NCBI GenBank assembly: GCA_946534715.1
Contig: CAMNCW010000026.1
Location: forward strand, 5,611-69,610
Origin: an uncultured Bacteroidales bacterium
GTDB lineage: Bacteria; Bacteroidota; Bacteroidia; Bacteroidales; Paludibacteraceae
Length of the DNA stretch: 64,000 bases
Reading direction: 5' to 3'
Shown here: one piece after another, positions 19,750-51,447 of the stretch
How positions within the stretch are numbered: the first letter of the stretch is position 1
Layout of the letters: each line of letters starts with the position of its first letter
Notes under the pieces: generated by a model
The model's database searches: none
The model's input: the letters and a program-made list of their open reading frames with translations, nothing else
Told to the model about the DNA's origin: nothing
Translations under genes and position numbers: made by a program

Positions 19750-21213
19750 ATGAAAATTCAGTTTCTCGGAGCTACCGGTGAAGTGACGGGTAGCAAACAT
19801 CTTATCACTACCGATTCGGGGCACACTATTTTGTTGGACTGTGGCATGTACCAGGGTAAAGGCATGGAAACCGATGCTGCGAACAGGGATTTGGGCTTTG
19901 ATCCGAAGACCTTGGACTGTGTGGTGCTTTCGCACGCGCACATTGATCATTCCGGGCTGATTCCTTATATTGTCAAGTTGGGTTTCAAGGGTGATATCTA
20001 TTGTACGCCGGCTACGAGGGATCTTTGCTCGCTCATGTTGACCGACACGGCTTTTATTCAGGAGCAGGATGTCAGAACCTACAACAAGAAGATCGACCGC
20101 CAGCATCCGCATAAGGAGAAAGGCAGGAAATACAAGGTCGAACCGCTCTATGACCAGAAGGATGTGCAAAAGGCGATGAAGCATTTTGTAACCTATAGTT
20201 ACGACCGTCGCTTCCGGCTTTTTGATGATGTGTTGCTGACTTTCACCAACTCCGGTCACATGCTCGGCGGTGCAATCTGCTCGCTGGAAGTGTATGAAAA
20301 ATCTACTCCCTCCCTTGTGGGGAGGGCTGGGGAGGGGTTCCGCTGGAAGCGCCTCACTTACACCGGCGATGTCGGACGTTTGCATTGCCATATCCTGCCT
20401 CCGCCCCAACTCTTCCCGCAATGCGATTATCTGATCTGCGAATCGACCTATGGCGATAAACTGCACGAAGAGCAGTTAGTGACCGAAGAGCAGCTCCTCG
20501 GCGTGGTGGAAGATACATGCGTCTATCGAAAAGGCCAGTTGCTCATTCCTTCTTTCTCCGTCGGCAGAACCCAGGAAATCGTTTATGTCCTCAACCAACT
20601 CTATAATGACGGACGGCTCCCGCATATTCCGGTCTATGTCGATTCGCCGATGAGTACCAACGCAACACAGATCTTCAGAATGTACCCGGAAGAGTTGTCA
20701 GACGAAGTGAGAGACACCATGCAGTTTGACCCCGATCCCTTTGGATTTAACACGCTGCGTTACATCACAGACATAAACGAATCGAAGATGCTGAACCATA
20801 AAGACGAACCCTGTATCATCATTTCCGCGAGCGGCATGTTGGAGGCGGGGAGAATAAAACACCATGTGGCGAACCATATTTCCGACCCGAGGTGTACGAT
20901 TTTGATTGTCGGTTACTGCGAACCTTCCACACTCGGCGCACGGATTCAGCAACCGGGATTGCAATGGATCTCTATTTTCGGACTTGACAGACGTATCAAA
21001 GCGCAGATCACCAAGATCGAAGGTTTCTCGGGGCATGGTGATTATAAAGAGATGATTGATTATTTCACTCGCTCTTTAGATGTATCACAAGTGCAGCGCA
21101 CGTTTGTGGTGCATGGAGAGCCGCAAGCGGCAGAGGCGTATAAGGGACATTTGACCGACGCGGGCTTCAAAAATATATGCATTCCCGCCAAAGGAGAGCT
21201 CGTAGAACTATAA
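19750..21213 (+). CDS. MBL-fold metallo-hydrolase of the beta-CASP RNA-metabolising type
   Basis: HAHIDHSG motif, beta-CASP and RNA-specificity C-terminal region; 487 aa. Confidence 0.85.
   Translation: MKIQFLGATGEVTGSKHLITTDSGHTILLDCGMYQGKGMETDAANRDLGFDPKTLDCVVLSHAHIDHSGLIPYIVKLGFKGDIYCTPATRDLCSLMLTDTAFIQEQDVRTYNKKIDRQHPHKEKGRKYKVEPLYDQKDVQKAMKHFVTYSYDRRFRLFDDVLLTFTNSGHMLGGAICSLEVYEKSTPSLVGRAGEGFRWKRLTYTGDVGRLHCHILPPPQLFPQCDYLICESTYGDKLHEEQLVTEEQLLGVVEDTCVYRKGQLLIPSFSVGRTQEIVYVLNQLYNDGRLPHIPVYVDSPMSTNATQIFRMYPEELSDEVRDTMQFDPDPFGFNTLRYITDINESKMLNHKDEPCIIISASGMLEAGRIKHHVANHISDPRCTILIVGYCEPSTLGARIQQPGLQWISIFGLDRRIKAQITKIEGFSGHGDYKEMIDYFTRSLDVSQVQRTFVVHGEPQAAEAYKGHLTDAGFKNICIPAKGELVEL
20306..20339 (+). 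repeat. G/C-rich hairpin mini-element, in frame (translated PSLVGRAGEGF)
   Basis: ctccctccc-ttgt-ggggaggg ctggggaggggtt within the MBL CDS. Confidence 0.85.
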
Positions 21214-21271
21214 AAATGCACTAAAATGCAAAAAAACTGCAAAATTATTTGCGTATGTCAAAAAAAAGCAG

Positions 21272-21279
21272 TACCTTTG
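21272..21279 (+). promoter_or_regulatory. -7 box TAccTTTG upstream of tRNA-Pro
   Basis: aaaaaaaagcagTAccTTTGcaccc, about 74 nt upstream of the mature tRNA 5' end. Confidence 0.6.
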
Positions 21280-21352
21280 CACCCGATTTTGTCGCGTAGT
21301 AGTTCTTATCTCGTTTCGCTCGAACGATTTACTACCCGCGGCAAAAATGTCG

Positions 21353-21427
21353 CGGGTAGTAGTTCAGCCCGGTTAGAATGCCTGCTTTGGGAGCAGGAGG
21401 TCGTGAGTTCGAATCTCGCCTACCCGA
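21353..21427 (+). tRNA. tRNA-Pro (anticodon TGG)
   Basis: Manual cloverleaf: acceptor CGGGTAG/CTACCCG, D stem GTTC/GAAT, anticodon stem CCTGC/GCAGG with loop TTTGGGA, T arm GTGAG-TTCGAAT-CTCGC, discriminator A. No encoded CCA. Confidence 0.9.
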
Positions 21428-21439
21428 CAGAAAATAAAT

Positions 21440-21465
21440 AAGGAGCCTGCAAGGCTTCTTATTTT
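21440..21465 (+). terminator. Hairpin terminator after tRNA-Pro
   Basis: aaggagcc-tgcaa-ggcttctt followed by attttg. Confidence 0.55.
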
Positions 21466-21473
21466 GTAAACTA

Positions 21474-21511
21474 TCAAACAACGTCAAACAACGTCAAACA
21501 ACGTCAAACAA
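21474..21511 (+). repeat. Perfect decamer array TCAAACAACG x3.8
   Basis: Exact copies, 12 nt upstream of the HAD hydrolase ATG. Confidence 0.95.
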
Positions 21512-21523
21512 TTCCACCTAACC

Positions 21524-22234
21524 ATGCTCTGTAAAGCTGTTTTCATAGATATTGACGATACGCTCCTTGACTACATTCCTTGTTGTCGGGAAGCCTTTGA
21601 TGCGGCTATGCAGGAGATACGAGCCATGCACCATACTGACCTTACCGAAGACGAGCTGTTTGCTATTTTCTTCTCGATTAGCGGAAGGCTCTTTTCGGAG
21701 GCGAAACACGGACTGCACACGGTGGCGGAAGTGATGGAACTTTATCCGCAGGAGTTTGTCGATACTATTGGCTATCCGGATACGTCGGTGGAGCCTTTCA
21801 AACAGGCGTTTCGTGCCAATTGGGGCAAAACGCACACTTTGGTTCCCGGAGCAAAAGAGACACTACAGGCTTTGAAACAAAAAGGTTACCGGCTCTTTGC
21901 TGCCAGCAATAGTTTCGGACATTTACAGCGCTCGCGTTTGCAATATGCCGGTTTGTTGCCCTATTTTGAAGACACTTATATCTCTATGGATATTGGTTAT
22001 GACAAACCCGATATCCGTTTCTACCAAGAGGCGCTTCGGCGCTGTCAATTATCGCCGGATGAGGTGGTTATGGTCGGAGACTCTATGACTACGGACATCT
22101 TAGGCGCAATCAATGCAGGATTGAAAGCCATTTATTTCAATCGCCGTCCCCAGGACACACCTTCCACCGCTGACTCCAACACCACGGAATACCAAGAGAT
22201 ACAATCTTTGGATCTTTTAGTAAAAATACTTTAG
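21524..22234 (+). CDS. HAD-superfamily hydrolase (YjjG-like nucleotidase/phosphatase)
   Basis: VFIDIDDTLLDY (motif I DxDxT), ..AASNS.. (motif II) and VGDSMTTDI (motif IV). Confidence 0.8.
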   Translation: MLCKAVFIDIDDTLLDYIPCCREAFDAAMQEIRAMHHTDLTEDELFAIFFSISGRLFSEAKHGLHTVAEVMELYPQEFVDTIGYPDTSVEPFKQAFRANWGKTHTLVPGAKETLQALKQKGYRLFAASNSFGHLQRSRLQYAGLLPYFEDTYISMDIGYDKPDIRFYQEALRRCQLSPDEVVMVGDSMTTDILGAINAGLKAIYFNRRPQDTPSTADSNTTEYQEIQSLDLLVKIL

Positions 22235-22361: not shown

Positions 22362-22399
22362 ACCTGTCTGCCGTCCGCCTGAATGACTTTTTCCATTGC

Positions 22400-23639: not shown

Positions 23640-24746
23640 ATGAGACACAAATTTATCATCTTATTTTCATTCTTTTTCTGCGTTGGCTGCGGGGCAACGG
23701 AAGTGCCTGAACCGCAACCCAAACCCGTTGCGTCTTATTCGTTATGCAACGCCAATGCTACTGCCGAAACGCAGCAGTTATGGTCGTTGTTGTGCAGCCA
23801 ATACGGTAAGAACGCCCTTTCCGGCGTGGTGGCTAATATAGATTGGAACGCGCGCGAGGCGGAGAACGTCTATCAATGGACGGGTCATTACCCGGCGATC
23901 AATGTGTTTGACTTTATCAATATCCATGCGTCCAAAGACGTGAATAAAAACGGCTGGCTCGATTACAGCGACATGACGCCGGTGGAGGAATGGCACCAAG
24001 CTGGCGGCATAGTAGGTTGCATGTGGCATTGGCAGGTGAAGGCGAACAACGGGACGAACTATACCTGTTCGCCGGGCGTCGAACCCGGGCAGACGTCTTT
24101 CGATCCCGCAAAGGTCAATGACCCCTCTTCGGCGGAATACAAACAAATGATCCACGATATTGACCAGGTAGCAGGGTATTTGAAGAAAATGCAGAAACGC
24201 GGAATAGCGGTTCTATGGCGTCCGTTGCACGAAGCATCGGGCAATACGTCGGAGTTTGCCGGCGGCGGTGCTTGGTTCTGGTGGGGTGCCAAAGGCGCAG
24301 AAGCATACAAAGCGCTATGGCGGTTCATGTACGACCGAATGGTTAATTATCACAAACTCAACAACCTCATCTGGATATGGAACTCACAGATGAACGACTA
24401 TGATTGGTACCCCGGCGACGACGTAGTGGATATCGTGGGACGCGATAACTACTATGCGCTCCAATACCCCTTGGCGAAAGAGTTCAAAGCCTTACAGGAG
24501 CAGTTCCCCAACAAACTGATCACGCTGGCGGAATGCGGCAACGGCGACGAAGTGGAGATGTCGCTATGGAGCGATATATGGTCGGAAGGCAGCCGCTGGA
24601 GCTGGTTCATGACGTGGTACGATTATAACTACAACGCCGGCACTTCCGACGAACATCAGTTTGCCGGCGAAGCATGGTGGAAAGATGCGTTCAACAGCGG
24701 CGTGGTGCTCGATCGGGATGAGGTGAAAGGACTGATGAGGAGGTGA
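23640..24746 (+). CDS. GH26 endo-beta-1,4-mannanase, lipoprotein
   Basis: Lipobox FFFCVGC. GH26 signature VLWRPLHEASG...GGAWFWWG. Confidence 0.85.
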   Translation: MRHKFIILFSFFFCVGCGATEVPEPQPKPVASYSLCNANATAETQQLWSLLCSQYGKNALSGVVANIDWNAREAENVYQWTGHYPAINVFDFINIHASKDVNKNGWLDYSDMTPVEEWHQAGGIVGCMWHWQVKANNGTNYTCSPGVEPGQTSFDPAKVNDPSSAEYKQMIHDIDQVAGYLKKMQKRGIAVLWRPLHEASGNTSEFAGGGAWFWWGAKGAEAYKALWRFMYDRMVNYHKLNNLIWIWNSQMNDYDWYPGDDVVDIVGRDNYYALQYPLAKEFKALQEQFPNKLITLAECGNGDEVEMSLWSDIWSEGSRWSWFMTWYDYNYNAGTSDEHQFAGEAWWKDAFNSGVVLDRDEVKGLMRR

Positions 24747-24747
24747 T

Positions 24748-24866
24748 AACCCCTCCTGACCTCCCCCACAAGGGGAGGAGAAAGGATAGTCATGAAGAGA
24801 AACAAATATATACTATTTTTACTTGCATTCTTAGCCCTCCCTTGTGGGGAGGGTTGTGGTGGGGTT
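24748..24866. mobile_element. 119-bp inverted-repeat cassette (two G/C hairpin elements in opposite orientation) straddling a start codon
   Basis: Left arm aacccctcctgacctcccccacaaggggaggag (24748-24780), right arm ccctcccttgtggggagggttgtggtggggtt (24835-24866). ATG 24792 lies between them. The right arm is translated as LPCGEGCGGV. Confidence 0.7.
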
Positions 24867-25964
24867 CTTCTCGCCACAGAGCGGACGATCCTGCTCGGTC
24901 CGAAGACGATTGGCAAAGCATGGAAAGATAACATTGTGCTGGAGGCTCGTCATTTCAAGGATGTGCAGCCGGGCGATGTGCTGACGGTGTATAACGACCG
25001 CGCCAAAGGTACGGCGCAAGGGGCTTTTCAGAACCCTCAGACATGGCAAGGCGTAGCCCCCGAATACGGTTATTTCGGTATCAACGGTCCTTTCCGAATG
25101 ACGATGACGGAAGATATATTAAGGATCGCGCGCACGCACGGAATAGCGATCGGCGGACACGACTACCGCATTCTGCGGGTGACTGTTTCCGACAGTGCGG
25201 ACTACCGCGAGACGATCGTATGGAACGGTCCGGCGGTGGTGATGAAAAGCGATTGGAGCGCGAGCGCCGAGATAGAGGGACGCTGTTTCGCGACCTTGCA
25301 GGAGGGCGATGGCCTGCGGTTGCATGTCTCCAAAGTGCAGGAAGGCGCTGCTGCCAAACTGATGGACTTCACATGGAATGCCTTGGATCCCTCGGTCGAT
25401 GGCATGCCGGTGGGGGAGAATGGTATCACATGGTATATCCATGACCGTGCACCGCTACTGAAACTACAATTGGCAGGCACAGGTTCGAACACTGCCATGC
25501 GGGTAGGAGGCAAAGGCTATCGGTTAGATCAGATCGGCATCGTGCAGTTTGTAGGCGAAGTGAGCGAAGACCTCTCCTCCGCGCAGCGGGCACCGAAGGA
25601 ATATACCTTGCAGCCTGGAGAACTCTTTCATGGCGAGAAATATTTCCCTGCCGATTGGAGCGGAAACCTAACCATCAATGCCGCGCCTTTCCAGAAATGT
25701 ACAGAGAATGATGTGCTGCTGATTTCTTATCGCTTGGATCCTGCTGCCAAAGCTGCCGGCGTGACACCGCAACTGTCGCTCCGCAACACCCGCACGTGGG
25801 GAGAACTGACCGGCGCTGCAGAGCCTGTTTGGTATCCTTTGGACGGCAATGACGTGGTCTATCTGTTTGATGCGGTCGCCTTGGATGCGGTCAAAACGCG
25901 CGGGTTCATCCTCACCGGAGTAGGATTTACGCTCACTAAAATAGAACTAATATCTGCACAATAA
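24792..25964 (+). CDS. Hypothetical secreted or lipoprotein with three ~110-130-aa modules (putative glycan-binding)
   Basis: Each module ends in a G.GY.L..I..V-like strand (GGHDYRILRVTV, GGKGYRLDQIGIV, TGVGFTLTKIELI), as in the modules of ORFs 31019 and 36582. Confidence 0.6.
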   Translation: MKRNKYILFLLAFLALPCGEGCGGVLLATERTILLGPKTIGKAWKDNIVLEARHFKDVQPGDVLTVYNDRAKGTAQGAFQNPQTWQGVAPEYGYFGINGPFRMTMTEDILRIARTHGIAIGGHDYRILRVTVSDSADYRETIVWNGPAVVMKSDWSASAEIEGRCFATLQEGDGLRLHVSKVQEGAAAKLMDFTWNALDPSVDGMPVGENGITWYIHDRAPLLKLQLAGTGSNTAMRVGGKGYRLDQIGIVQFVGEVSEDLSSAQRAPKEYTLQPGELFHGEKYFPADWSGNLTINAAPFQKCTENDVLLISYRLDPAAKAAGVTPQLSLRNTRTWGELTGAAEPVWYPLDGNDVVYLFDAVALDAVKTRGFILTGVGFTLTKIELISAQ

Positions 25965-28900: not shown

Positions 28901-29130
28901 TCCTCAAAATCAAATATATCACCCTCAGTTACGATTGGAATAACCCTGCCAAATGGCTGCAGAAGATCAATTTCAATTTCACCGTCAATAACGTCTATAC
29001 TTTCACGCGTTATTCATGGTTTGACCCCGATGTGAATGCCGCCGGCACGAATCCTTCCTGCCCGGGCGTGGATAGTTATTCCTATCCCGCTGCACGGACG
29101 TATAACTTAGGTATCAACTTTGTATTCTAA
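25966..29130 (+). CDS. susC: SusC/RagA-family TonB-dependent outer-membrane transporter
   Basis: 1054 aa. CarboxypepD_reg-like TVTGKVIDGANNESAIGATVIV, plug domain and C-terminal ...YNLGINFVF. Confidence 0.95.
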   Translation: MKNKFFVHRTLFHRTFIVLCTLSLCSFLSAQTTVTGKVIDGANNESAIGATVIVAGTQVGTVTDFDGHFSIEVPDGKFILQFSMVGYKTQVVNIRGKSHVEVTMQEDTQVMEEVVVVGYGVMKKRDLSGSVSQIKSEDIMSGGTLNTAQSLEGKIAGVDVKSSDGAPGSGVSITVRGANSFTTSSQPLYIVDGVPFGTDPNGVPSSGANDGQNTSQNPLSMINPNDIEKIEVLKDASATAIYGSRGANGVVIITTRKGQEGRPRVELNVKGGMQQIANRVQMLDAYHYALYQNEAAANSRTYEGGTQRDPYRGEWDYPYVGSGYVYNQGKYNPSPEDFLNPGLRTDKYGNVDEVAGTDWQREIYQLGYSQEYNASVSGGTEKGYYAFSGSYADQRGIIKNTGYKRYGLSINTAWHITKWLEIGTSQHFTNATTDFQRTNSENTGIIRSALIFPPTYGPHQQTEQLDELNWLAANPLNYVNGAKDELKQISWFSSSFVEFTIQPWLKLRQNLGLGYNDGHRATYYDRHTQEGKSPFNGKAGRASNIWKSLTAETLLTFDHKFNANHSINAVLGVTFERGIGESESMTATNFPNDLTKDANMALALDKGVLRSSQTQQSLESYLARMNYTLMGRYIFTASARVDGSSSFAPKHKWAPFFSGAFAWRMIDENWMQDQQVLSNWKWRVSFGETGNQAIGAYRTLTVLDAANYPYAGTLESGAAMIDWRGPTNPDLRWETTDQADAGLDIGFANNRVNITLDYYWKKTRDLLQNVTIPSSTGFSQMMINSGFVINQGFELTLNAVAIDMADWKWQLDANFSLNRNRIGGLKGDQYATALWSKADQVFLQRNGCPIGTLYGYREEGIDPATGEIVYSDLNGDGSVTEADRTIIGNTNPDFTYSLTSRLSWKGLSLNFMLQGSHGNDIFNYNLTDITMSNIGNITQQAYDHRWTAANPDGALWPKPTAGYNRTWLVSNRYVEDGSFLKIKYITLSYDWNNPAKWLQKINFNFTVNNVYTFTRYSWFDPDVNAAGTNPSCPGVDSYSYPAARTYNLGINFVF
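25981..26047. repeat. Imperfect heptamer array (TTGTAC/TTGTCC type, ~9 units) encoding the SusC signal peptide
   Basis: tttgtac atcgtac attgttc ... ttgtact ttgtact ttgtccc tttgttc gives FVHRTLFHRTFIVLCTLSLCSF. Shares LCTLSLC with ORF 9918. Confidence 0.75.
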
Positions 29131-29131
29131 T

Positions 29132-29247
29132 AACCCCACCTGACCTCCCCACAAGGGAGGGAATAAAAACACTACAGTTATGAAAGTAAAAAAATATATC
29201 ACCCGACTATTAATCATCCTCCCCTTGTGGGGAGGCTTGGTGGGGTT
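29132..29247. mobile_element. 116-bp inverted-repeat cassette (second copy) straddling the susD start codon
   Basis: Left arm aaccccacctgacctccccacaagggaggg (29132-29161), right arm cctccccttgtggggaggcttggtggggtt (29218-29247). ATG 29180 lies between them. The right arm is translated as LPLWGGLVGL. Confidence 0.7.
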
Positions 29248-30979
29248 ATTTCCCTCCTGTTCCTGGATCCAGGAGAACCCGGACAGTCTTATCACGCCCG
29301 AGAAACTCGGAGACAGCAAGGAGGCTTGTGACCAACTTGTCACCGGCGTCTATTCCAAGTGGATATACGACATGTTCTGCTGGGGCTATTTCCCGCGGAT
29401 GTTAGAGTTTGACGCGGACTATATCTCCGGTCCCGATTGGTTATTCGGTACGTTTGGCGCCGGCAATTTCCAAGGCGAGCCGGACTTGGTGGATGCGTTA
29501 TGGAAAGGATGTTACGGGCTCATCGGACGCGCCAACACTGCCGAGCAGTATATCTCCGCGATGAAGAATATCACCGACAGGGAGAAGAACAATGCCCTTG
29601 GCGAACTGCGTTTCCAGAAGGCTTTTGCGTACTTCCTCCTTGTCCGCGCCTACGGAGAGGTACCTATCCAAGTACCAATCACCAATAACCAATCCCCTGT
29701 CTCCCCCTCTGAGAGGGGGGCGGGGGGGGGCTCTCCCCGCAAACCCGTCACGGAGGTCTATTCCCATATCATCTCCCTGCTCGAAGGCTGCACCACGATG
29801 CTCTATAAAAACACGGATGATGCCTATCGTCCCGGGCATGTGTCTGCGGGCTCTGCGGCTGGTTTGTTAGCCAAAGTCTATGCTACCGAAGCGTCTTACG
29901 CTATGCCTGCCGGCACCTCCCTCACGATCCGTTCCGGAGCGGCTTATACCACCGATGGATCCGGCAACAAACGCTATGCACCTTTGCAGGCATTCCATTT
30001 GACCAAACAGACCGTCCCCGGCTACGAGTCCCTCGATCCGATGCAGCTCTACCAGCAGGCTGCCGATTGGTGCTCGGAACTGTTAGCCGGTACGTACGGT
30101 GACTATCAGCTCTCGGAATACGACCAACTTTGGCTCAAAGCCAACGCCAATGCCTCGGAGTTCCTGTTCTCCGTCAATACCGTCTCCGGCGATGCTACCT
30201 ATAAGACCTCGGTGCATACCCAGTATGAGGGCTACATGACCGCTACGGGTTCGGACTTCATTCAGTCCGGTGGCTGGACCGGCTGCACGCGTCATTGGTA
30301 TGACCTCTTCGACCATGACGACTACCGCATCACCAAAGGTGTACGTCACCGCTGGCGCAACTACACGCAGCGTGAGTCTAACTCCGGCTTCTATTATCCC
30401 TATGACGATGAATATACGATCATGGCGACCGGCAGAAACCTCGCCGGTGATTGGATCAAAGACCCTTCCGGCATCTATGCCGACGGCGTCAATTATTACT
30501 ATTCCGCCGATGCGCAATGTCTCGCTTTTACTACCAAATACGAGGACGTGACCGATAATGCCATTGATAATGCTGATGCCAACTGGCCTTTCCTCCGTTT
30601 GGCGGATGTAATACTGATCTACGCCGAGGCGCTCAATGAACTGGATCATCCCTCCGATGCGCTTGCGCAACTGAATAAGGTACGTCTGCGCGCCAATGCA
30701 GACCGTGCTTCCATGGGCGGCAAGAGAGCGTTGGCTACCAAAGAGGCACGGCGGTCTGCCATCATCGAAGAACGCGCCAAAGAGTTAGCATGCGAAGCAG
30801 ACCGCCGATGGGATCTGATCCGCTGGGGCGTTTATCTCGACGCGATGAATGCCTTGGGAGGAACGGACGACTCCGGCGTCAATAAATCCCGCACCGAACG
30901 CAATCTCCTTTTCCCGCTGCCCGCACAGGAGATCAACACCAACCCCGAGATCAACTCCAATAACCCCGGGTGGAATTAA
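29180..30979 (+). CDS. susD: SusD/RagB-family nutrient-binding outer-membrane lipoprotein
   Basis: Lipobox ..LFPSCSWIQENPDS, and TPR-like SusD core (FLLVRAYGEVP, LRLADVILIYAEALNE). Confidence 0.9.
   Translation: MKVKKYITRLLIILPLWGGLVGLFPSCSWIQENPDSLITPEKLGDSKEACDQLVTGVYSKWIYDMFCWGYFPRMLEFDADYISGPDWLFGTFGAGNFQGEPDLVDALWKGCYGLIGRANTAEQYISAMKNITDREKNNALGELRFQKAFAYFLLVRAYGEVPIQVPITNNQSPVSPSERGAGGGSPRKPVTEVYSHIISLLEGCTTMLYKNTDDAYRPGHVSAGSAAGLLAKVYATEASYAMPAGTSLTIRSGAAYTTDGSGNKRYAPLQAFHLTKQTVPGYESLDPMQLYQQAADWCSELLAGTYGDYQLSEYDQLWLKANANASEFLFSVNTVSGDATYKTSVHTQYEGYMTATGSDFIQSGGWTGCTRHWYDLFDHDDYRITKGVRHRWRNYTQRESNSGFYYPYDDEYTIMATGRNLAGDWIKDPSGIYADGVNYYYSADAQCLAFTTKYEDVTDNAIDNADANWPFLRLADVILIYAEALNELDHPSDALAQLNKVRLRANADRASMGGKRALATKEARRSAIIEERAKELACEADRRWDLIRWGVYLDAMNALGGTDDSGVNKSRTERNLLFPLPAQEINTNPEINSNNPGWN
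29675..29738 (+). repeat. CCAATNN heptamers x3 fused to a G/C hairpin element containing a G6-C-G9 tract, in frame in susD
   Basis: ccaatca ccaataa ccaatcc then cctgtctccccctctgagaggggggcgggggggggctctcccc. Translated ITNNQSPVSPSERGAGGGSPR. Confidence 0.85.
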
Positions 30980-34308: not shown

Positions 34309-34338
34309 TTTACAATTTACAATTCACAATTTACAATG
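34307..34338. repeat. Heptamer array AATTYAC x4 ending in the GH36 ATG
   Basis: aatttac aatttac aattcac aatttac aATG. Confidence 0.9.
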
Positions 34339-36507
34339 AAACGACTATTCAAAATAAGCCTTGCCCTGTGTGTCTGCCTGATAGTGGGCACACCGATGCG
34401 GGCAGTAGAGATGCTGCCTACTTTCGGCGACATCGATCATATTCATCTGCCGGCGCTCATTGTGCAACATGCCGACGGTGATCTGAGTCTGCAACTGCGA
34501 GCACAGGACACCACCTATATCGACAACGCGCAATACAAAGAGACGGTGATTAAGACCAAAGATCTGGTGCAGCCGTTCTATGTGACGATCCATGTGCGGC
34601 AATGGAAATCGGTAGCGATTACCGAGACATGGTATGAGATCCTGCACACCGAGAAAAAGCCCGTGCGGTTAGAGCGTTATGACAGCGGGTATCTGCCTAT
34701 CGAGGGCGATGCGCCGTACCTGTTGCACCTACACGGTAACTGGGCGGCGGAGGGAGTGCCGACTATCGAACCTCTGACGCGCGGTGTGAAGACGATCCGT
34801 AACTCCGACGGCGCACGCAATGCGCATCTGGATGCACCCCAAGTGATGATCTCGCTGGACGGTGTGCCGCAAGAGAACTACGGCCGTGTGTTAGGCGCTG
34901 CGCTTTGCTGGAGCGGAAATTTCGAGATACGCGTGGCGGCTACCGACGAGAAAGGTTTTCATTTCTATGCCGGCATTGATCCCATGGCATCCGAGTACGT
35001 ATTAGCGCCCAAACAAGTGTTCACCACGCCGCATTTGGCTTATACGTATTCGAACGAGGGTATGGGCGGTGTGTCGCGTGCGTTCCATCAATGGGCGCGC
35101 ACCTGCGGCATGATCCATAACGGCAATGCTACGCGGGCTATTCTGCTTAACTCGTGGGAAGGCATCTATTTCGACATCACGGAGGAGAAGATCCTTGCCA
35201 TGATGAACGATATAGCGGCTTTCGGAGGTGAGCTCTTCGTGATGGACGACGGCTGGTTTGGCGGTAAGTACCAACGCAACAGCGATGATGCGGCGTTAGG
35301 CGATTGGACGGTCGATACACGCAAGCTGCCGAACGGACTCGAAGCTCTCACCAAAGCAGCCAAAGAGCGGCATATTCAGTTCGGTATATGGATCGAGCCC
35401 GAATCGACCAACACCCTTTCGGAACTCTATGAGAAGCATCCTAATTGGGTGCTCCAAGAGCGCGGAAGGGAACTCAAACTCGGTCGCGGAGGTACACAAG
35501 TAGTGCTCGATATGACGAACCCGGAGGTGCAGGATTTCGTGTTCTCCATCGTGGATAACCTCCTTACCAAGCACCCCGAAATAGCCTATATCAAATGGGA
35601 TGCGAACGCCTCGATTCAGAACTACGGTTCGCCGTACTTGCAGGCTCTTTCCGAGAACAAGTCTCTCCCCTTCAGGGGAGTAGGAGGGGTCCGCTCGAAC
35701 CTCTACGTGGACTACCATCTGGGGCTGGTCAAGACGCTCGAACGCATCCGCGCCAAGTACCCGGACGTGGTGATACAGAACTGCGCCTCGGGCGGCGGCC
35801 GTGCCAACTACGGGCTTATGCCGTATTTCGACGAGTTCTGGGTGTCCGATAACAACGATGCGCTGCAACGCGTCTATATCCAGTGGGGCACGTCGTATTT
35901 CTTCCCCTCAAACGCCATGGCGCAGCATATAGGCGGAAGTCCGTACCTCATGACCGGCCGCACAACGCCGATCAAGTTCCGCTGCGATGTAGCTATGTCG
36001 GGACGGCTCGGTATGGAACTGCAACCGGCGCACATGACTGACGAGGAACGCGCACAGTGTACCGTCGCTTTTCGCGACTACAAAGCCCTGCGCTCCCTCA
36101 TCCAACTCGGTAACCTCTACCGCTTGGTATCGCCGTACAATGACAAATATCAAATGTCAAATGTCAAATTGCCCGAAACGCAAAGCGTTGCGGCATTGAT
36201 GTACGTCAATGATACCAAAGACCAAGCCGTGCTCTTTGCGTACGGACTCTCCTCTTTCATGAAGCAGGCGAGCCGCCGTATCCGTCTTGCAGGGCTTGAT
36301 CCGAACCGTACCTATACGCTCCATGAGAAGAATATCTCCGTTAAGTACCACCATGACCGCGGTTCATGGGGCGAAGGCGAACCCTGCGAACTCGACGGCA
36401 AGTCTTTTACCGGCGAATACCTCATGTCCGTTGGTCTGGATATCCCTCTCTCTACCGAATACAACAGGGATTATCCCTCACGTATATTTTATTTAATTGG
36501 TAATTGA
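34336..36507 (+). CDS. GH36 alpha-galactosidase
   Basis: 723 aa. FVMDDGWFG, IKWDANA and NCASGGGRANYG motifs typical of GH36. Confidence 0.9.
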   Translation: MKRLFKISLALCVCLIVGTPMRAVEMLPTFGDIDHIHLPALIVQHADGDLSLQLRAQDTTYIDNAQYKETVIKTKDLVQPFYVTIHVRQWKSVAITETWYEILHTEKKPVRLERYDSGYLPIEGDAPYLLHLHGNWAAEGVPTIEPLTRGVKTIRNSDGARNAHLDAPQVMISLDGVPQENYGRVLGAALCWSGNFEIRVAATDEKGFHFYAGIDPMASEYVLAPKQVFTTPHLAYTYSNEGMGGVSRAFHQWARTCGMIHNGNATRAILLNSWEGIYFDITEEKILAMMNDIAAFGGELFVMDDGWFGGKYQRNSDDAALGDWTVDTRKLPNGLEALTKAAKERHIQFGIWIEPESTNTLSELYEKHPNWVLQERGRELKLGRGGTQVVLDMTNPEVQDFVFSIVDNLLTKHPEIAYIKWDANASIQNYGSPYLQALSENKSLPFRGVGGVRSNLYVDYHLGLVKTLERIRAKYPDVVIQNCASGGGRANYGLMPYFDEFWVSDNNDALQRVYIQWGTSYFFPSNAMAQHIGGSPYLMTGRTTPIKFRCDVAMSGRLGMELQPAHMTDEERAQCTVAFRDYKALRSLIQLGNLYRLVSPYNDKYQMSNVKLPETQSVAALMYVNDTKDQAVLFAYGLSSFMKQASRRIRLAGLDPNRTYTLHEKNISVKYHHDRGSWGEGEPCELDGKSFTGEYLMSVGLDIPLSTEYNRDYPSRIFYLIGN
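35663..35691 (+). repeat. G/C hairpin mini-element in frame in GH36 (translated SLPFRGVGGV)
   Basis: ctctcccc-ttca-ggggag taggaggggtc. Confidence 0.8.
36138..36171 (+). repeat. Heptamer array CAAATNT x5 in frame in GH36 (NDKYQMSNVK)
   Basis: caatga caaatat caaatgt caaatgt caaattg. The 20-mer aatgacaaatatcaaatgtc recurs (reverse strand) in aroQ at 62178-62219. Confidence 0.9.
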
Positions 36508-37460: not shown

Positions 37461-37495
37461 TAAATCTCAAATGTCAAATCTCAAATCTCAAATAT
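37461..37495 (+). repeat. Heptamer array CAAATNT x5 containing the GH26 start codon
   Basis: taaatct caaATGt caaatct caaatct caaatat gives MSNLKSQIL. Confidence 0.9.
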
Positions 37496-39731: not shown

Positions 39732-39736
39732 ATAAT

Positions 39737-39772
39737 CAATCGTAAATGGTAAATCGTAAAATCGTCAATTAT
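39737..39772 (+). repeat. Heptamer array AAATCGT type x5 containing the transporter start codon
   Basis: caatcgt aaATGgt aaatcgt aaaatcgt caattat gives MVNRKIVNY. Confidence 0.85.
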
Positions 39773-42290: not shown

Positions 42291-43301
42291 ATGAAGCCCT
42301 ACAAATTTGCCCCATACTTAAAAACCACCATTTGGGGAGGTTATCAGATAGCCCCTTTCAAGGGTATTTATACCGCGCAGCCTAATATCGGCGAGTCGTG
42401 GGAGATCAGTGCCGTGCCCGGACATGAGTCTGTGGCGGTGGAAAGAGGTATCATCGGAGATGTCGATCTCGGACTGAATCTCGCACAACTCATTGATAAG
42501 TACAAAGGACTGCTCGTCGGTGAACGCGTCTATAAGAAATACGGCAATACCTTTCCCCTTCTTGTCAAGTTCATTGATTCGCGCCAGGATCTCTCTGTGC
42601 AAGTGCACCCTGACGATAAACTGGCGCAGAAACGCCACGGCTGTCCCGGCAAGACGGAGATGTGGTATGTCGTCAAAGCCGACGTGGGATCGAAGATTTA
42701 CTCCGGTCTCAAAAAATCCATCACTCCCGAAGACTACGAACGTTTAGTAACTACTGACACCACTACCCCCATCTCCCCCTCTGAGAGGGGGCAGGTGGGT
42801 GTCCCCTCTAACCCCTTCCTGGACATTATCGCAACCCACGAAGCGCATCAGGGAGACCTCTTTTTCCTCCCTGCCGGACGGCTCCATGCTATCGGTGCCG
42901 GTAATTTCCTCGTGGAGATACAGCAGACCTCCGACATCACCTACCGCGTCTATGATTTCGGCAGAAAGGACGCCCACGGTAACCCGCGTGAACTGCATAT
43001 CGAGCAAGCAAAAGAGGCAATCGATTATCAGGTCTGGCCCGAGTACCGAACTTCCTATGACTCGACCAAACCCAACTCCGAACTCATCCATTGCCCGTAT
43101 TTCACGGTCAATAGGGTAGTAGTGCAGGTGGCGGCGGAGATAGACCTGCATACGGATGCGTTTGTCGTCGTGGTCTGCCTTTGGGGCGAAGCACATATCA
43201 ACGGCATTCATGTCAAACAGGGCGAAACACTACTCGTTCCCGCCTCCGAAAACGTCCTCTACATCTTCGGTAACGCCACTTTCCTCACCGCCACAATGTA
43301 A
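42291..43301 (+). CDS. manA: Type I mannose-6-phosphate isomerase
   Basis: WGG..I...KG....IGESWE, LSVQVHPDD, EMWYV and AIGAG..L.EIQQTSD.TYRVYD motifs. Confidence 0.85.
   Translation: MKPYKFAPYLKTTIWGGYQIAPFKGIYTAQPNIGESWEISAVPGHESVAVERGIIGDVDLGLNLAQLIDKYKGLLVGERVYKKYGNTFPLLVKFIDSRQDLSVQVHPDDKLAQKRHGCPGKTEMWYVVKADVGSKIYSGLKKSITPEDYERLVTTDTTTPISPSERGQVGVPSNPFLDIIATHEAHQGDLFFLPAGRLHAIGAGNFLVEIQQTSDITYRVYDFGRKDAHGNPRELHIEQAKEAIDYQVWPEYRTSYDSTKPNSELIHCPYFTVNRVVVQVAAEIDLHTDAFVVVVCLWGEAHINGIHVKQGETLLVPASENVLYIFGNATFLTATM
42767..42815 (+). repeat. G/C hairpin mini-element in frame in manA (PISPSERGQVGVPSNP)
   Basis: ccccatctccccctc-tga-gagggggcaggtgggtgtcccctctaacccc. Same core and frame as the susD copy at 29694. 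Confidence 0.85.
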
Positions 43302-44377: not shown

Positions 44378-44382
44378 GGTTA

Positions 44383-44410
44383 TTGATAATTGACAATTGA
44401 TAATTGATGA
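44383..44410. repeat. Heptamer array TTGAYAA x4 (identical 28-mer to 1007-1034)
   Basis: ttgataa ttgacaa ttgataa ttgatga fills the 33-nt spacer between two minus-strand genes. Confidence 0.9.
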
Positions 44411-47952: not shown

Positions 47953-50419
47953 TGAATTTCTCTTCGAATGTTGCCTTTAGGCGGTTCATAATATTCTCAA
48001 TCTGTGTATCTTTGAGGGTGTTCTCTGCATCTTGGAGGATGAAGGAGAGGGCATAGGATTTCTTGCCTTCTTCGAGGTTCTTGCCCTCATAGACATCAAA
48101 CAGATAGACGTTCTTGAGCAGTTTCTTCTCCGTGGAGAAGGCAGCGCGTGCGAGGTCTGCGAACTCAACAGATTTATCCACAAGGAGCGCAAAGTCACGC
48201 TTAACTTCCGGATATTTGGGCAGATCATTGATAACTGCTTTGTATTGTTTGTTCTGTTTGAGCAGTTGGTTCCAATCAAGGTCTGCATAATAGACTTCCT
48301 GGTCGATGTCGAAGATCTTGAGCTGCTTGCGAGCCACGATGCCAATAAAGCCGAGTGCTTTGCCGTTAGCGGCTTTGATGACGAGACCATCAGAGAAGAG
48401 TTCGTTCTCCAGACGCTCTACGGTCGTCTTGGAGAGATCAACACCGAGACGCACAAGGATGTTGTTCACATATGCGTGGAGCTGATAGAACGTGGTTTTC
48501 TCTTCCTTGCGAACCCAAGTCTGTGCGGCTTTGTTACCGGTGAGCCAAAGACCGATATGCGGCTCCTCGGAATATGCCTTGAGTGGATCGTTTTGAATTA
48601 ATTCGTAATTTTTAATTTTTAATTCTCCATTGTAGTGGTAGCAGTTACCGAACTCGTAGAACTTGAGGTCGCTGTTCTTGCGGTTGGCGTTGCGTGCGAT
48701 AGACTCGAGTCCGCCAAAGAGCAGGGTCTGACGCATCACACCGAGGTCTTGGCTCAAGGGGTTCATGATCTTGACGCACGTGTCCAATGTCAGTTGGGTC
48801 AAAGGCTCGTAGTACGATACTTTGGTAAGCGAGTTATTGAGGATCTCATTGAAGCCCTGTGCGGTGAGTTGCTCTGCAATCTTACGACGCAGTTTCTCAG
48901 GATCCGGCTTGAGACCATATGCAAGGCTGGTGTTCAGTTTCTCAGGGAACTCGACATTGTCATAGCCGTAGATACGGAGGATGTCTTCCACTACATCGCA
49001 CTCACGCTGTACGTCCACGCGGTAGCGCGGAACTTCCAACTGCCAGGAGTCGCCATGTTTGGTAACTATATTGATCTCCAATGCGTGGAGGATCGTTTCG
49101 ATCGTGTCCTCGCCGATAGCTTTACCGATGAGGCTGTTGACACGGTTGATGTCAATAGTTACTGACCATGGAGACAGTAGCGAATCAGTGGCGGTAAAGT
49201 CTAGGATCATTCCTATTTGATCAGCATTCGAGAGCGTTTTGATAAGGAGGGCGGCACGTTTGAGGACGTAAAGTGTGTTGCAAGGGTCACAGCCACGCTC
49301 GTAACGGAAAGAAGCGTCCGTCTGGAGCTGGTGACGACGACTCGTCTTGCGGATGGTTACGGGATCGAAATAGGCTGACTCCAAGAAGATGTTTTTGGTG
49401 TTTTCTGTTACACCGCTTTCAAGTCCGCCGAAGACTCCGGCTATACACATCGCCTCTTCTTTGTTGGCTATCATGAGATCGCGTGCATCCATTTCGCGTT
49501 CAACGCCGTCGAGAGTAACGAATTTCTCGCCTTGTTTAGCATAGCGGACGTGAATCTCGTTGCCCTTTATCTTGTCTGCATCGAAGGCGTGGAGCGCTTG
49601 TCCGCACTCGTGGAGCACGAAGTTAGTGACATCGACGATGTTGTTAATAGGGCGAAGACCGATGGCCAAGAGGCTGTTTTTGAGCCATTCCGGCGATTCT
49701 TTTACTTCTACACCTTTGATATAAACGCCGGAATAACGCGGGGCTGCGTCCGGCGCTTCAACAATGACAGAGATGGGTGATTCGTTGATATCCGATTTGA
49801 ACTCCTCTACTGAAGGTTTGGAGAGCGCGATATCCTGTCCGTGCGCTTTGTAGTATGCGTAAAGGTCACGGGCTACACCATAGTGAGATGCTGCGTCGGA
49901 ACGGTTTGGCGTGATATCTACTTCGATGATGGTGTCATTCTCAATGTGGTAGTAATCAGCGGCTTTCATGCCCACCGGCGTGTCCGCCGGGAGGACGATG
50001 ATGCCTGCATGGTCTGTTCCCACACCGATTTCGTCTTCCGCGCAGATCATACCGAATGAGTCCTCGCCGCGGAGTTTGCCTTTTTTGATGGTGAAGGACT
50101 GATCGCCGTCATAGAGAACGGTTCCGATAGTAGCGACGATAACTTTCTGTCCGGCCGCGACATTCGGCGCTCCGCAGACAATAGGCAGCGGTTCTGCTTC
50201 TCCAACGTTCACTTTGGTGATATGCAAGTGGTCGGAATTAGGGTGAGGTTCACAAGTTAACACTTCGCCCACAACAAGGCCTTTGAGTCCGCCACGGATC
50301 GATTCTTTCTCTTCCACTGTTCCCACTTCCAAACCGATAGAAGTAAGAATTTTTGCTACTGTTTCCGCGTCATCTTTCAACGCAATGTAGCGTTTTAACC
50401 AATTATACGATATATTCAT
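47936..50419 (-). CDS. pheT: Phenylalanine--tRNA ligase beta subunit
   Basis: 827 aa. MNISYNWLKRYI, tRNA-binding, B3/4, B5 and FDX-ACB domain order. Confidence 0.95.
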   Translation of the reverse strand: MNISYNWLKRYIALKDDAETVAKILTSIGLEVGTVEEKESIRGGLKGLVVGEVLTCEPHPNSDHLHITKVNVGEAEPLPIVCGAPNVAAGQKVIVATIGTVLYDGDQSFTIKKGKLRGEDSFGMICAEDEIGVGTDHAGIIVLPADTPVGMKAADYYHIENDTIIEVDITPNRSDAASHYGVARDLYAYYKAHGQDIALSKPSVEEFKSDINESPISVIVEAPDAAPRYSGVYIKGVEVKESPEWLKNSLLAIGLRPINNIVDVTNFVLHECGQALHAFDADKIKGNEIHVRYAKQGEKFVTLDGVEREMDARDLMIANKEEAMCIAGVFGGLESGVTENTKNIFLESAYFDPVTIRKTSRRHQLQTDASFRYERGCDPCNTLYVLKRAALLIKTLSNADQIGMILDFTATDSLLSPWSVTIDINRVNSLIGKAIGEDTIETILHALEINIVTKHGDSWQLEVPRYRVDVQRECDVVEDILRIYGYDNVEFPEKLNTSLAYGLKPDPEKLRRKIAEQLTAQGFNEILNNSLTKVSYYEPLTQLTLDTCVKIMNPLSQDLGVMRQTLLFGGLESIARNANRKNSDLKFYEFGNCYHYNGELKIKNYELIQNDPLKAYSEEPHIGLWLTGNKAAQTWVRKEEKTTFYQLHAYVNNILVRLGVDLSKTTVERLENELFSDGLVIKAANGKALGFIGIVARKQLKIFDIDQEVYYADLDWNQLLKQNKQYKAVINDLPKYPEVKRDFALLVDKSVEFADLARAAFSTEKKLLKNVYLFDVYEGKNLEEGKKSYALSFILQDAENTLKDTQIENIMNRLKATFEEKFNATLR
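48595..48633. repeat. Heptamer array AATTNNT x5 in frame in pheT (GELKIKNYELIQ on the minus strand)
   Basis: ttgaatt aattcgt aattttt aattttt aattctc cattgta. Confidence 0.8.
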
Positions 50420-50455
50420 TTTTAATGTAATTTATGCAAAATATCAAAATTGCTG

Positions 50456-50463
50456 CAAAGGTA
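50456..50463 (-). promoter_or_regulatory. -7 box (reverse complement TAccTTTG) for pheT
   Basis: caaaggta, 37 nt upstream of the pheT ATG (50419). Confidence 0.55.
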
Positions 50464-50546
50464 CAAAAAAAATCTCACATATGCAAGCGCGCGCGTATTT
50501 TTCCTTATTTTTTATGAATATATTTGCATATATCAAAAATTCTTTG

Positions 50547-50554
50547 TATCTTTG
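50547..50554 (+). promoter_or_regulatory. -7 box TAtcTTTG
   Basis: Preceded by TTTGCATATATCAAA. ATG at 50573. Confidence 0.55.
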
Positions 50555-50572
50555 CAGCAAATTTGGTGTATT

Positions 50573-50782
50573 ATGCGCTCAGTAGTATATGCGATAGTGA
50601 TTTTAGGAGCGGCTATGTTGCTGCTATGCGTCGGAATAATCCTGCGCAAGGATCATTCGTTCCGGTCTCAGCATATTGGTGAGAATGCGCGCATGCGGGA
50701 AGACAAGATTCATTGCGCCACCAGCCAAGACCGGGAGGCTCAGCGCGAACAAAGAAAGAAAATAGATATTAAAAAATTATAA
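50573..50782 (+). CDS. Small single-pass membrane protein
   Basis: MRSVVYAIVILGAAMLLLCVGIIL TM segment followed by a charged tail. Start chosen downstream of the promoter box. Confidence 0.4.
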   Translation: MRSVVYAIVILGAAMLLLCVGIILRKDHSFRSQHIGENARMREDKIHCATSQDREAQREQRKKIDIKKL

Positions 50783-50784
50783 TT

Positions 50785-51411
50785 ATGAACAAAATTTCAA
50801 TTATTGTAGATTCAGTTTTGTGTGCCGCAGTAGTGGCCTTGTTTGTGATGTTTTTTGTAGCCATGCCGAAGAGCAAGAAGCCTGTTAATCAGGATGTTGA
50901 GGCTTCAGGCGAGTTACTGCCTATTGCTGTAGTGAATACAGATTCGATTTTGAAACATTACACTTTAGCCGTTGAGGCATCGGATAAATTGATGGCTCAA
51001 TATGAGGAGTCCACGGTTAAACTGGATACCAAAGCAAAAGCCCTTCAGAAAGAGTACGAGACTTTCCAACGCGACGTTGTGGATTTTCAGCGCAAAGTGG
51101 AGGCCAATGCTTTCCTGAGCCGCGAACGTGCCGAGTCTGAGCAATCTCGTTTGCAGAAAAAAGAGCAACAGTTGATGAGCAAACAGCAGGATTTGGAAAA
51201 TCTGCGTCAGAAATTGAGCTCGGATTTTATGAACGAGCAGGCTGCTTTGACCCAACAGTTGCAGGATTCAGTACAACAATATCTGCGTGAATATAACGCT
51301 GACGGTCATCTGCATCTGATTCTAAATGAAGCTGTTCTGATGAACAAAGTGGCAGGCTATGACATTACCGATGAGGTGATTGAAGGTCTGAATGCACGGT
51401 ATAAGAAGTAA
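50785..51411 (+). CDS. OmpH/Skp-family periplasmic chaperone
   Basis: 208 aa. N-terminal anchor, then long Q/E/K-rich coiled coil typical of OmpH. Confidence 0.75.
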   Translation: MNKISIIVDSVLCAAVVALFVMFFVAMPKSKKPVNQDVEASGELLPIAVVNTDSILKHYTLAVEASDKLMAQYEESTVKLDTKAKALQKEYETFQRDVVDFQRKVEANAFLSRERAESEQSRLQKKEQQLMSKQQDLENLRQKLSSDFMNEQAALTQQLQDSVQQYLREYNADGHLHLILNEAVLMNKVAGYDITDEVIEGLNARYKK

Positions 51412-51413
51412 AT

Positions 51414-51447
51414 AACCCCCTCCCGACCTCCCCCACAAGGGGAGGAG
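51414..51447 (-). repeat. Solo G/C hairpin element (reverse orientation) directly after a stop codon
   Basis: TAA-at-aaccccctcccgacctcccccacaaggggaggag. Same left-arm sequence as 24748 and 29132. Confidence 0.85.

Follow-up and report, generated by a model that had tools for sequence, protein, structure and literature searches.

We examined a 64,000-nucleotide stretch of DNA, here called the window, from contig CAMNCW010000026.1 of an uncultured Bacteroidales bacterium of the family Paludibacteraceae (GenBank assembly GCA_946534715.1). The window carries a mannan-type polysaccharide utilization locus (PUL; window 22600-43400, ~22.6-43.3 kb) that, as read, contains genes for AraC, GH26, an exported protein, SusC, SusD, GH36, a second GH26, GH130, MFS, a 2-epimerase, and ManA. 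Seven of these genes were assigned directly by Pfam; the second GH26, GH130, and MFS genes were assigned from the gene table of a syntenic locus, L001, and AraC from the translation of its open reading frame (ORF). The G+C content of the PUL is 0.52-0.54, compared with ~0.47 in its flanks. Coordinates are positions in the window unless another locus is named, and L-numbers label the related DNA loci with which the window was compared. Our subject is a small DNA element, 30-36 nt long, that occurs nine times in the window, seven of them within the PUL. Each copy can form a hairpin from a C-rich and a G-rich arm, followed by a G-rich tail.

The element has two forms. Type A, CCTCCCC/CCCTCCC-TTGT-GGGGAGG(G)-N3-GG(G)WGGGG-TT(ATT), accounts for seven window copies, including the GH36 copy with its TTCA loop. 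Type B, TCTCCCCCTC-TGA-GAGGGGG-N3-GGGGGWG, accounts for two. In all nine, the stem is 6-8 bp and the first loop 3-5 nt. The copies are as follows.

20304..20339, plus strand: type A, in the MBL/beta-CASP RNase gene (19750-21213); CCCTCCC-TTGT-GGGGAGGG-CTG-GGGAGGGG-TT; in frame, encodes TPSLVGRAGEGF
24745..24783, minus strand: type A, left member of pair 1; starts TAACCCC directly 3' of the GH26 stop codon TGA (24744-46)
24834..24868, plus strand: type A, right member of pair 1; within the signal peptide of ORF 24792-25964 (ALPCGEGCGGVLL)
29129..29165, minus strand: type A, left member of pair 2; directly 3' of the SusC stop codon TAA (29128-30), with AATAA on each side
29216..29250, plus strand: type A, right member of pair 2; provides most of the hydrophobic core (LPLWGGLVGLF) in the signal peptide of the SusD lipoprotein
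29700..29730, plus strand: type B, in SusD; TCTCCCCCTC-TGA-GAGGGGG-GCG-GGGGGGG; in frame, encodes SPSERGAGGG
35662..35691, plus strand: type A variant, in the GH36 alpha-galactosidase gene; CTCCCC-TTCA-GGGGAG-TAG-GAGGGG; in frame, encodes SLPFRGVGGV
42772..42803, plus strand: type B, in the gene for type I mannose-6-phosphate isomerase (ManA); TCTCCCCCTC-TGA-GAGGGGG-CAG-GTGGGTG; in frame, encodes ISPSERGQVGV
51414..51449, minus strand: type A, singlet without a partner; 1 nt 3' of the stop codon TAA (51409-11) of an OmpH-like gene and upstream of a Wzi-like gene

An earlier inspection of the letters alone (the sequence-only reading) had placed nine copies at these sites, and direct reading of the sequence finds the element at 9/9. 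A class-agnostic scan for perfect hairpins (C/T arm of at least 6 nt, loop of 3-6 nt, complementary G/A arm) returns the same nine sites and no others. Twenty composition-matched Markov shuffles gave 0-2 strand-hits each, a mean of ~0.2 sites, and the exact core CTCCCC-N3-4-GGGGAG occurs twice in the window against 0.01 expected from shuffles; there, the motif is well above what composition predicts. Profile searches with nhmmer match copy 20304 at 38 bits and copy 51414 at 24 bits. Three further claims of that reading also stand. Specifically, host ORF translations confirm that six copies lie inside ORFs and are read through, and that all three reading frames are used, as in SLVGR (MBL/beta-CASP), PCGEG (ORF 24792), and PLWGG (SusD). 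All three reverse-orientation copies begin TAACCCC next to a stop codon, with a gap of 0 nt at 24745 and 29129 and of 1 nt at 51414. The element-derived peptides, besides those of GH36 and ManA listed above, are STPSLVGRAGEGF in the MBL/beta-CASP protein, ALPCGEGCGGV in ORF 24792, and LPLWGGLVGL and SPVSPSERGAGGG in SusD. Rfam at its gathering threshold finds no family in the window except one tRNA, whose gene (21353-21427) lies between the MBL gene and a HAD gene; eight of the compared loci, searched at E <= 1, give no relevant match.

A Mirror-Image Tail and a Predicted Triplex Fold

The stretch that the sequence-only reading had called a G-rich tail repeats the purine arm in mirror image, a point absent from that reading. 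The purine arm has a single A, whose position shifts among variants (GGGGAGG, GGGAGGG, GAGGGGG, GGGGAG, GGGAGG, GGGGGA, AGGGGG), and the T:A pair moves jointly in both arms (CCTCCCC/GGGGAGG, CCCTCCC/GGGAGGG, CCCCCTC/GAGGGGG, CTCCCC/GGGGAG). Beyond a 3-nt loop, the single non-G base of the tail shifts with the arm A in mirror fashion. Among 204 hairpins with asymmetric arms and a G-rich 3' flank, 124 have a perfect mirror tail, compared with 7.5 expected when the letters of the tail are permuted. The second loop is 3 nt long in 116 of the 124 perfect mirrors, most commonly TCG, CCG, GCG, CTG, TTG, or TTA. Facing the A:T pair, the tail has T in 99 cases and A in 26, C and G being impossible by the design of the test. 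In the window, seven of nine copies read as perfect mirrors: 20304, 24745, 29129, 29216, 35662, 51414 (GGAGGGG(G)), and 24834, the last with a 4-5-nt loop. Both type B copies have one mirror mismatch each.

Two other descriptions of the tail were tried and rejected. If the tail were a direct repeat, capable of forming an alternative hairpin, it should repeat the arm in the same direction; perfect matches to that model number 0 for GAGGGGG, GGGGAGG, GGGGAG, GGGGGA, and AGGGGG, and 1 each for GGGAGG and GGGGAGGG, against 124/204 for the mirror. A G-quadruplex fails as the common denominator because, as read, the short type A and the type B copies lack four G3 tracts.

At the level of sequence, the mirror covariation holds over at least six arm variants, and the tail follows the rule by which a purine-motif (reverse-Hoogsteen) triplex pairs when one strand folds back twice. 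Read from 5' to 3' as pyrimidine arm, 3-5-nt loop, purine arm, 3-nt loop, and G/T/A mirror arm, the element could fold in this manner into a class II purine-motif triple helix. It is the mirror tail after a 3-nt loop that places the element in the intrastrand-triplex class known as BoxC, PIT, or TM.

A described member of that class is TM_ECO, 5'-CCCTCNCCC-N3-6-GGGNGAGGG-N3-GGGNGAGGG (Holder et al. 2015, PMC4666352), which the same work identifies with BoxC and with Maher's PIT elements (citing Hoyne et al. 2000 and earlier BoxC papers). Its triplex was shown by circular dichroism, NMR, and in vivo footprinting, and 3610 TM copies were counted in 262 proteobacterial genomes, with many G/C-rich motifs in cyanobacteria. 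In E. coli, TM_ECO is "always located intergenically," forms five inverted pairs, has no linked transposase, and coincides with locally increased sequence variability. Purine-motif triplexes do not form in RNA (all PMC4666352). We read one E. coli pair directly, between hrpB and mrcB, as TTTTCT-CCCTCTCCC-TGT-GGGAGAGGG-CCG-GGGTGAGGG; the type A profile detects the E. coli copies weakly, with E = 0.006 and 0.035 in 601 nt.

The likeness extends to the order of parts (C-rich arm, 3-6-nt loop, G-rich arm, 3-nt loop, second G-rich arm), to a second G-rich arm that obeys the G*G:C and T/A*A:T rules, and to a length of ~34-37 nt, second loops TTA and CCG, and a T-rich pyrimidine lead-in (TTTTCT). Both families also have many highly similar copies, some inverted pairs, locally variable surrounding DNA, and no associated transposase. 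Differences lie in the arms (6-8 nt with one A/T pair here, 9 nt with two in TM_ECO), in the polarity of pairs (tails outward here, inward at hrpB-mrcB), and in the host phylum (Bacteroidota here, Proteobacteria and Cyanobacteria for BoxC/PIT/TM). The E. coli copies are intergenic, whereas here six of nine are translated and ~85% of those elsewhere lie in long open frames. Judged by sequence, the window element is a member of the BoxC/PIT/TM structural class and departs from it in intergenic habit only; intergenic location characterizes the E. coli family and does not enter into the structural definition.

Copies Within Genes and Turnover Between Genomes

The sequence-only reading had held that conservation is at the level of DNA, not of protein, and had proposed aligning each host protein with orthologues that lack the segment. 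Such alignments agree with it: where the window hosts carry element peptides, orthologues and PDB homologues have empty sites or unrelated inserts. PDB homologues of the GH36 protein have a 12-aa gap exactly at the element, the beta-CASP homologue TTHA0252 has a 13-aa gap exactly at its element, and the alignment of ManA with its PDB homologue breaks at the element site. The loop that joins YL to SNLY is hypervariable in 120 GH36 orthologues, ranging from the short form PRDKQ to many unrelated inserts, and SLPFRGVGGV is limited to the two closest proteins. The MBL site, between YEE[SGD] and RWKRL, is empty in some of 120 orthologues of 85-95% identity and holds dozens of different inserts of 5-40 residues in the rest. 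The element sites are permissive loops and, in ORF 24792 and SusD, signal peptides, all hypervariable among orthologues. Selection would keep only frame-preserving copies in tolerant places, namely surface loops, signal-peptide cores, and positions just past stop codons. The G/C-rich unit has no stops in most frames and yields peptides rich in Gly, Pro, Ser, and Leu.

In the Bacteroidales loci, 0.85-0.89 of elements lie in open frames of at least 450 nt, compared with 0.89-0.92 of random positions; either orientation and any of the six frames is used. The elements do not avoid coding sequence. Type B is more often intergenic (0.60 vs. 0.83), and intragenic copies have no orientation bias (19 vs. 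32; 40 vs. 38).

Related genomes differ in their element content, and elements at given sites have been gained, lost, or replaced. In L001, whose PUL is 76-86% identical to that of the window, pair 1 and the GH36 copy are retained, the latter with one change, in its loop. L001 has neither copy at the SusC/SusD junction. Its SusD signal peptide carries a different mini-repeat where the window has copy 29216, and the type B position in SusD holds an unrelated insert, VKSSARSDCQWPSVEQIGEG. At the type B position in ManA (L001 17640-17721), there is a tandem array of a ~27-nt C-rich unit (CCTCTAACCCACTAACCCCCTCATCCT). Conversely, the L001 epimerase gene contains a copy that is absent from the window. 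Locus L068 (UBA4331), with a SusC ~80% identical, lacks both members of pair 1 and possesses pair 2. In L119, the PUL is absent between flanks that are 93-97% identical; the MBL gene of this 96%-identical relative carries, at the same site, a diverged variant that shares ~23/34 positions, and a peptidase S9 gene contains an extra copy absent from the window. L119 has another island in place of the PUL (12560-18550), containing a gene for a Y1-HUH/DprA-like protein, an Apyc1-like MBL, and an LRR protein.

Distribution Beyond the Window

The related DNA that was found comes from rumen and gut Bacteroidales metagenome-assembled genomes. A scan with the type A pattern, with one genome per species, finds it in at least ~20 Bacteroidales/Paludibacteraceae metagenome-assembled genomes among the matches listed; also among these are very many Rhizobiaceae and isolated records from Devosiaceae, Planctomycetes, and cyanobacteria. 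In total, other genomes and metagenomes supply at least 85 distinct type A copies and 72 type B copies, the latter from 62 metagenome contigs judged to be from rumen by their record names and often within heptamer tandem arrays. Density in the Bacteroidales loci is 0.14-0.28 per kb, and copy number is high in rumen and gut Paludibacteraceae. Predicted viral contigs gave four matches only, all of the Rhizobium type and with a G+C content of 0.63-0.65.

The Rhizobiaceae form is TTAAGCCCCTCCCCCTTGTGGGGAGGGGTTGGGGAGGGGTTTT, whose core is ~85% identical to the window's ATTCCCCTCCCTTGTGGGGAGGGTTGGGGTGGGGTTATT, first loop TTGT included; given that the search used the type A pattern, the sharing of loop and tail is partly an effect of ascertainment. 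Like the window element, the rhizobial repeats occur as tail-out inverted pairs. They differ from it in being nearly always paired, with preferred spacers of ~58 or ~92 nt, in being intergenic at L081, the one Rhizobiaceae locus examined in detail, and in residing in hosts of high G+C. Since the rhizobial arm is its own mirror (G4AG4), triplex, alternative hairpin, and G-quadruplex are indistinguishable there. The composites measure ~130-180 bp (L081 1763-1940 and most Rhizobiaceae loci among L002-L118) and consist of two near-identical tail-out cores; the partner is sometimes a second type of hairpin, TCTCCCCCCTTGTGGGGGAGATGGCCGGCAGGCCAGA. These repeats probably belong among the RIME/REP-type repeats of rhizobia.

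Proposed Spread at the DNA Level

Taking structure, placement, and turnover together, we favor the reading that the element is a dispersed family of 30-36-nt DNA units of BoxC/PIT/TM_ECO-like triplex design, spread or exchanged at the DNA level. From the sequence comparisons, we would give this a probability of about 75%. Related genomes that differ in element content and repeats dispersed at the DNA level are what is observed. The copies would spread or be exchanged through a trans-acting, structure-specific process, for which the candidates are a single-strand enzyme of the HUH/Y1 type or recombination between copies. The folded structure may also make its sites locally unstable, as reported for TM_ECO, which would help to explain the unrelated inserts in the same loops.

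Several observations weigh against this reading. First, no mobilizing enzyme was found and no target-site duplication is consistent over the copies, so it is solely the patterns of presence and absence that speak for mobility. The flanks have only a T-rich bias, and AATAA stands on both sides at copy 29129 alone. Second, copies are sometimes more conserved than their surroundings. Copy 24834 is identical at 35/35 positions in L001, where the surrounding block is 76% identical, and segment 29121-29180 of pair 2 is 100% identical to L068, compared with ~78% in its flanks. High conservation of this kind could mean a function at the nucleotide level, not selfish spread. Third, the open-frame measure overestimates coding status, scoring 8/9 window copies as coding where gene reading gives 6/9. 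Fourth, a canonical G-quadruplex motif also fits part of the copies, namely long type A copies and the Rhizobiaceae form. Finally, the folding energy of single units in ViennaRNA, which has no triplex model, is no better than that of shuffles (z ~0), as expected for sequences made of G/C runs. With regard to conservation, copies are far more conserved than their surroundings at some sites and far less so at the MBL site, and turnover or exchange fits this combination better than simple purifying selection.

One alternative is about how the elements would move and leaves room for the triplex architecture. It holds that the elements are non-autonomous transposons of the REP/REPIN type, in which the tail-out doublet would be the replicative unit, singlets its decayed halves, and a single-copy RAYT-like Y1 HUH transposase, working on folded single-stranded DNA, the mobilizer. 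Polarity speaks for it: a count over the window, L001, and the Bacteroidales and metagenome loci, orthologous duplicates included, gives 16 close inverted pairs with tails outward ("-+") and 1 with tails inward ("+-"). Pairs also come and go as units, both members being present or both absent in 3/3 comparisons, and the Rhizobiaceae relatives are nearly always pairs with spacers of ~58 and ~92 nt. The REP/REPIN-RAYT systems (PMC3116915, PMC3733652, PMC6006769) share with our element a size of 20-40 nt, high copy number, secondary structure, doublets of fixed polarity, and positions at or over stop codons. Bacteroidetes-specific TnpA_Y1 subclasses with "atypical secondary structures" are described (PMC6006769), and the clade contains a divergent family of Y1 HUH proteins.

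Other features do not fit. The GTAG/CGTC tag of REP elements is absent from an alignment of the 85 type A and 72 type B copies, whose ends are TT(ATT)/TGTC with a T-rich pyrimidine 5' lead, and the elements are not preferentially extragenic. The start codon and N terminus between paired copies are homologous to element-free orthologues; the DNA between the copies is therefore native, and the doublet is not a simple inserted unit. On the same grounds, we rejected two composite models, a unit of fixed length (suggested by the equal 56-nt spacers of the window pairs) and a mobile signal-peptide cassette, the L001 spacer being 14 nt longer. Singlets and tandem copies predominate over pairs in Bacteroidales. 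No RAYT gene was found flanking an element (as in a REPtron), and tblastn with E. coli RayT gave no match in the element-bearing loci, 0.9 Mb + 0.47 Mb in extent. Rhizobiales are poor in tnpA_Y1 genes, with few or none (PMC6006769). We regard the REP/REPIN mechanism as possible and somewhat unlikely.

A regular-expression search for HUH...Y..NP yielded one gene only, the Y1-like gene of L119. It encodes a 442-aa protein (L119 12605-13933) with an N-terminal Y1 HUH domain of the IS200/RAYT type and a C-terminal DprA/ShosA-like domain. In this family, the HUH motif and the Tyr of YL.DNP are invariant; there are 508 homologues with almost no Pfam annotation, Pfam Y1_Tnp is a weak match in 21/26 members, and the 30 best Foldseek matches are without exception IS200/IS605/RAYT Y1 transposases. 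The genes reside in defense-type islands, in L189 and L190 within a type I restriction-modification operon, and no element adjoins them in any of seven loci (L119, L185-L190), the single L119 hairpin lying ~3 kb upstream. Because of this setting and the lack of flanking elements, we do not link the protein to the elements. The L119 gene itself contains three in-frame copies of another palindrome, CTCCGAGCATGAGCTCGGAG.

Pairs also raise the question of regulation. For three exported proteins (ORF 24792, SusD, and a GHL10-like protein in L075), the ribosome-binding region and AUG lie between the members of a pair, the three pairs being independent; the left member directly follows the stop codon of the upstream gene, and the right member forms part of the signal-peptide hydrophobic core. 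The pairs could be selected regulatory structures in which a ~30-bp long-range RNA stem would control translation initiation or mRNA processing for the secreted protein downstream; with its left arm 0-1 nt past the stop, the stem could be opened by ribosomes terminating upstream. Predicted long-range stems of the pairs are stable relative to controls (ViennaRNA z = -3.8, -6.7, -8.8), and genomes whose flanks are ~78% identical agree at 92-100% over the segment of pair 2. However, other pairs are wholly intragenic (in RecF in L088 and in a 5.9-kb ORF in L052), most copies are singlets, and intragenic copies have no orientation bias, neither of which is expected for a function at the RNA level. 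The last two points make a regulatory role, in our view, a minor and unlikely alternative.

A local origin is very improbable. Under this account, the copies would not be mobile; slippage or template switching between quasi-palindromes in indel-prone loops would converge on a G/C-rich form. The host sites are indeed hypervariable among orthologues, with many short, direct-repeat-like inserts of period ~7 aa, and the genome is rich in heptamer arrays. Nonetheless, 30-40 nt are nearly exact between unrelated genes and intergenic DNA, within and between genomes, the mirror-tail rule holds over arm variants, and slippage is unable to make the same 35-mer at many loci. Least credible of all is the notion that the pairs are DNA invertase sites, partial intergenic invertons that switch the downstream gene: ~30-bp inverted repeats do flank 50-70 bp containing a start codon beside SusC/SusD-type genes, yet spacer orientation is identical in every orthologous pair (window/L001 and window/L068), most copies are singlets inside genes, and no recombinase gene was noticed in the window by reading the ORF list and by Pfam on ten proteins, the other ORFs being unscanned.

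Other Known Repeat Families

Spread of triplex-type units at the DNA level, the reading that we favor, can be set against other families of small repeats. The sequence-only reading had likened the behavior of the copies to Rickettsia palindromic elements and to REP or Correia-type elements. The first comparison holds in part. Rickettsia palindromic elements (Ogata et al. 2000; cited in PMC3733652) are reportedly ~100-150 bp long, encode 30-50 aa in frame within functional genes, and are restricted to Rickettsia. Both are dispersed palindromic DNA repeats, translated in frame and tolerated at permissive positions. The Rickettsia elements, set apart here by their description, are longer than 30-36 nt, have no triplex-type mirror arm, and are probably unrelated in sequence, and the resemblance is behavioral only. 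Membership in REP/RAYT is not supported, given the tag and location described above and the lack of a RAYT match in 1.4 Mb of element-bearing loci. Occasional intragenic REPs are reported in several species (PMC3733652), so a small palindromic repeat that is translated is, by itself, no novelty. The Correia-type comparison also falls: Correia/NEMIS elements are MITEs, units of 70-300 bp with terminal inverted repeats and target-site duplication, and single units here have neither such repeats nor a consistent duplication.

A further parallel is provided by the small dispersed repeats of heterocystous cyanobacteria (Elhai et al. 2008), which are said to be <40 nt long, seemingly mobile, and located in heptamer arrays and genes. 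Our element likewise is very small, seemingly mobile, and without a known enzyme, and it occurs in genes and, as type B often does, within heptamer arrays. Compared by description only, the two differ in sequence and in structural rule.

The sequence-only reading knew of no such description for Bacteroidota, and nothing that we found contradicts it. Our literature searches for a Bacteroidota description of such elements returned none, PMC4666352 mentions no Bacteroidetes for G/C-rich motifs, and a search for the literal element sequence returned unrelated primers only.

Other Repeats in the Window

Tandem arrays of period 7 lie at gene borders throughout the window (1007-1032, 5856-5897, 9939-9976, 17478-17509, 32106-32139, 34307-34337, 36139-36169, 36539-36572, 37462-37493, 38500-38539, 39713-39769, 44382-44412, 48598-48624, 62181-62218, and 62394-62420). 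They resemble cyanobacterial STRR arrays. Two are intragenic, that at 36139 in GH36 and that at 38500 over the GH26 C terminus, where it is read as ISNLKCQISNLK.

There is also a second family of translated mini-repeats, in which the short hairpin varies and the tail that follows it, GGTCTAAC(AG), is constant. It is read as SNSPKDGLT, KRSN, or GLTAKRS and, like the triplex-type elements, is found in signal peptides and loops, at L001 ~4870-4990 (SusD start), at L075 5185-6420 (RecF), and in GH36 orthologues P0105, P0114, P0115, and P0118. A third insert encodes VKSSARSDC(Q/R)WPSVEQIGE. It stands at residues ~180-200 of the L001 SusD, the type B site of the window, and, in GH36 orthologues P0064 and P0072, it is nested inside a type A-like SPSLWGRAGERL insert. 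Finally, an 18-nt unit is repeated 11 times at 15728-15928 (also read as a 90-nt repeat) in ORF 14128-16182, whose L119 counterpart has an RNase E/G domain and a repeat that differs by 18 nt.

Implications

BoxC/PIT/TM repeats have been known for ~30 years and have been treated as intergenic. We know of no established function or spreading mechanism for them.

Already established is the triplex repeat class itself, in Proteobacteria and Cyanobacteria (PMC4666352). New here, judged by sequence, are triplex-class repeats in Paludibacteraceae, within the Bacteroidota, that are mainly intragenic, translated, and organized in part as tail-out pairs that come and go as units. We further speculate, while considering it quite a long shot, that the elements could be hotspots of instability and recombination that remodel the loops and signal peptides of PUL proteins, that the tail-out pairs could serve as portable homology for swapping start-segment cassettes, and that a structure-specific factor shared with Rhizobiaceae could read the fold.

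These genomes amount to a set of natural experiments, in which a site is filled in one genome and empty in a relative of 76-96% identity, many variants of the arm conform to the triplex pairing rule, and the members of a pair come and go together. Such contrasts can be used to ask three questions: is the fold itself the target of recognition or selection, does it destabilize the DNA around it, and by what route do elements this small move? For metagenome-assembled genomes, the consequence is that gene calling, orthologue alignment, and structure prediction are affected. For the bacteria themselves, the repeats add Gly/Pro/Ser-rich loops, and even signal-peptide cores, to rumen carbohydrate-active enzymes and SusD.

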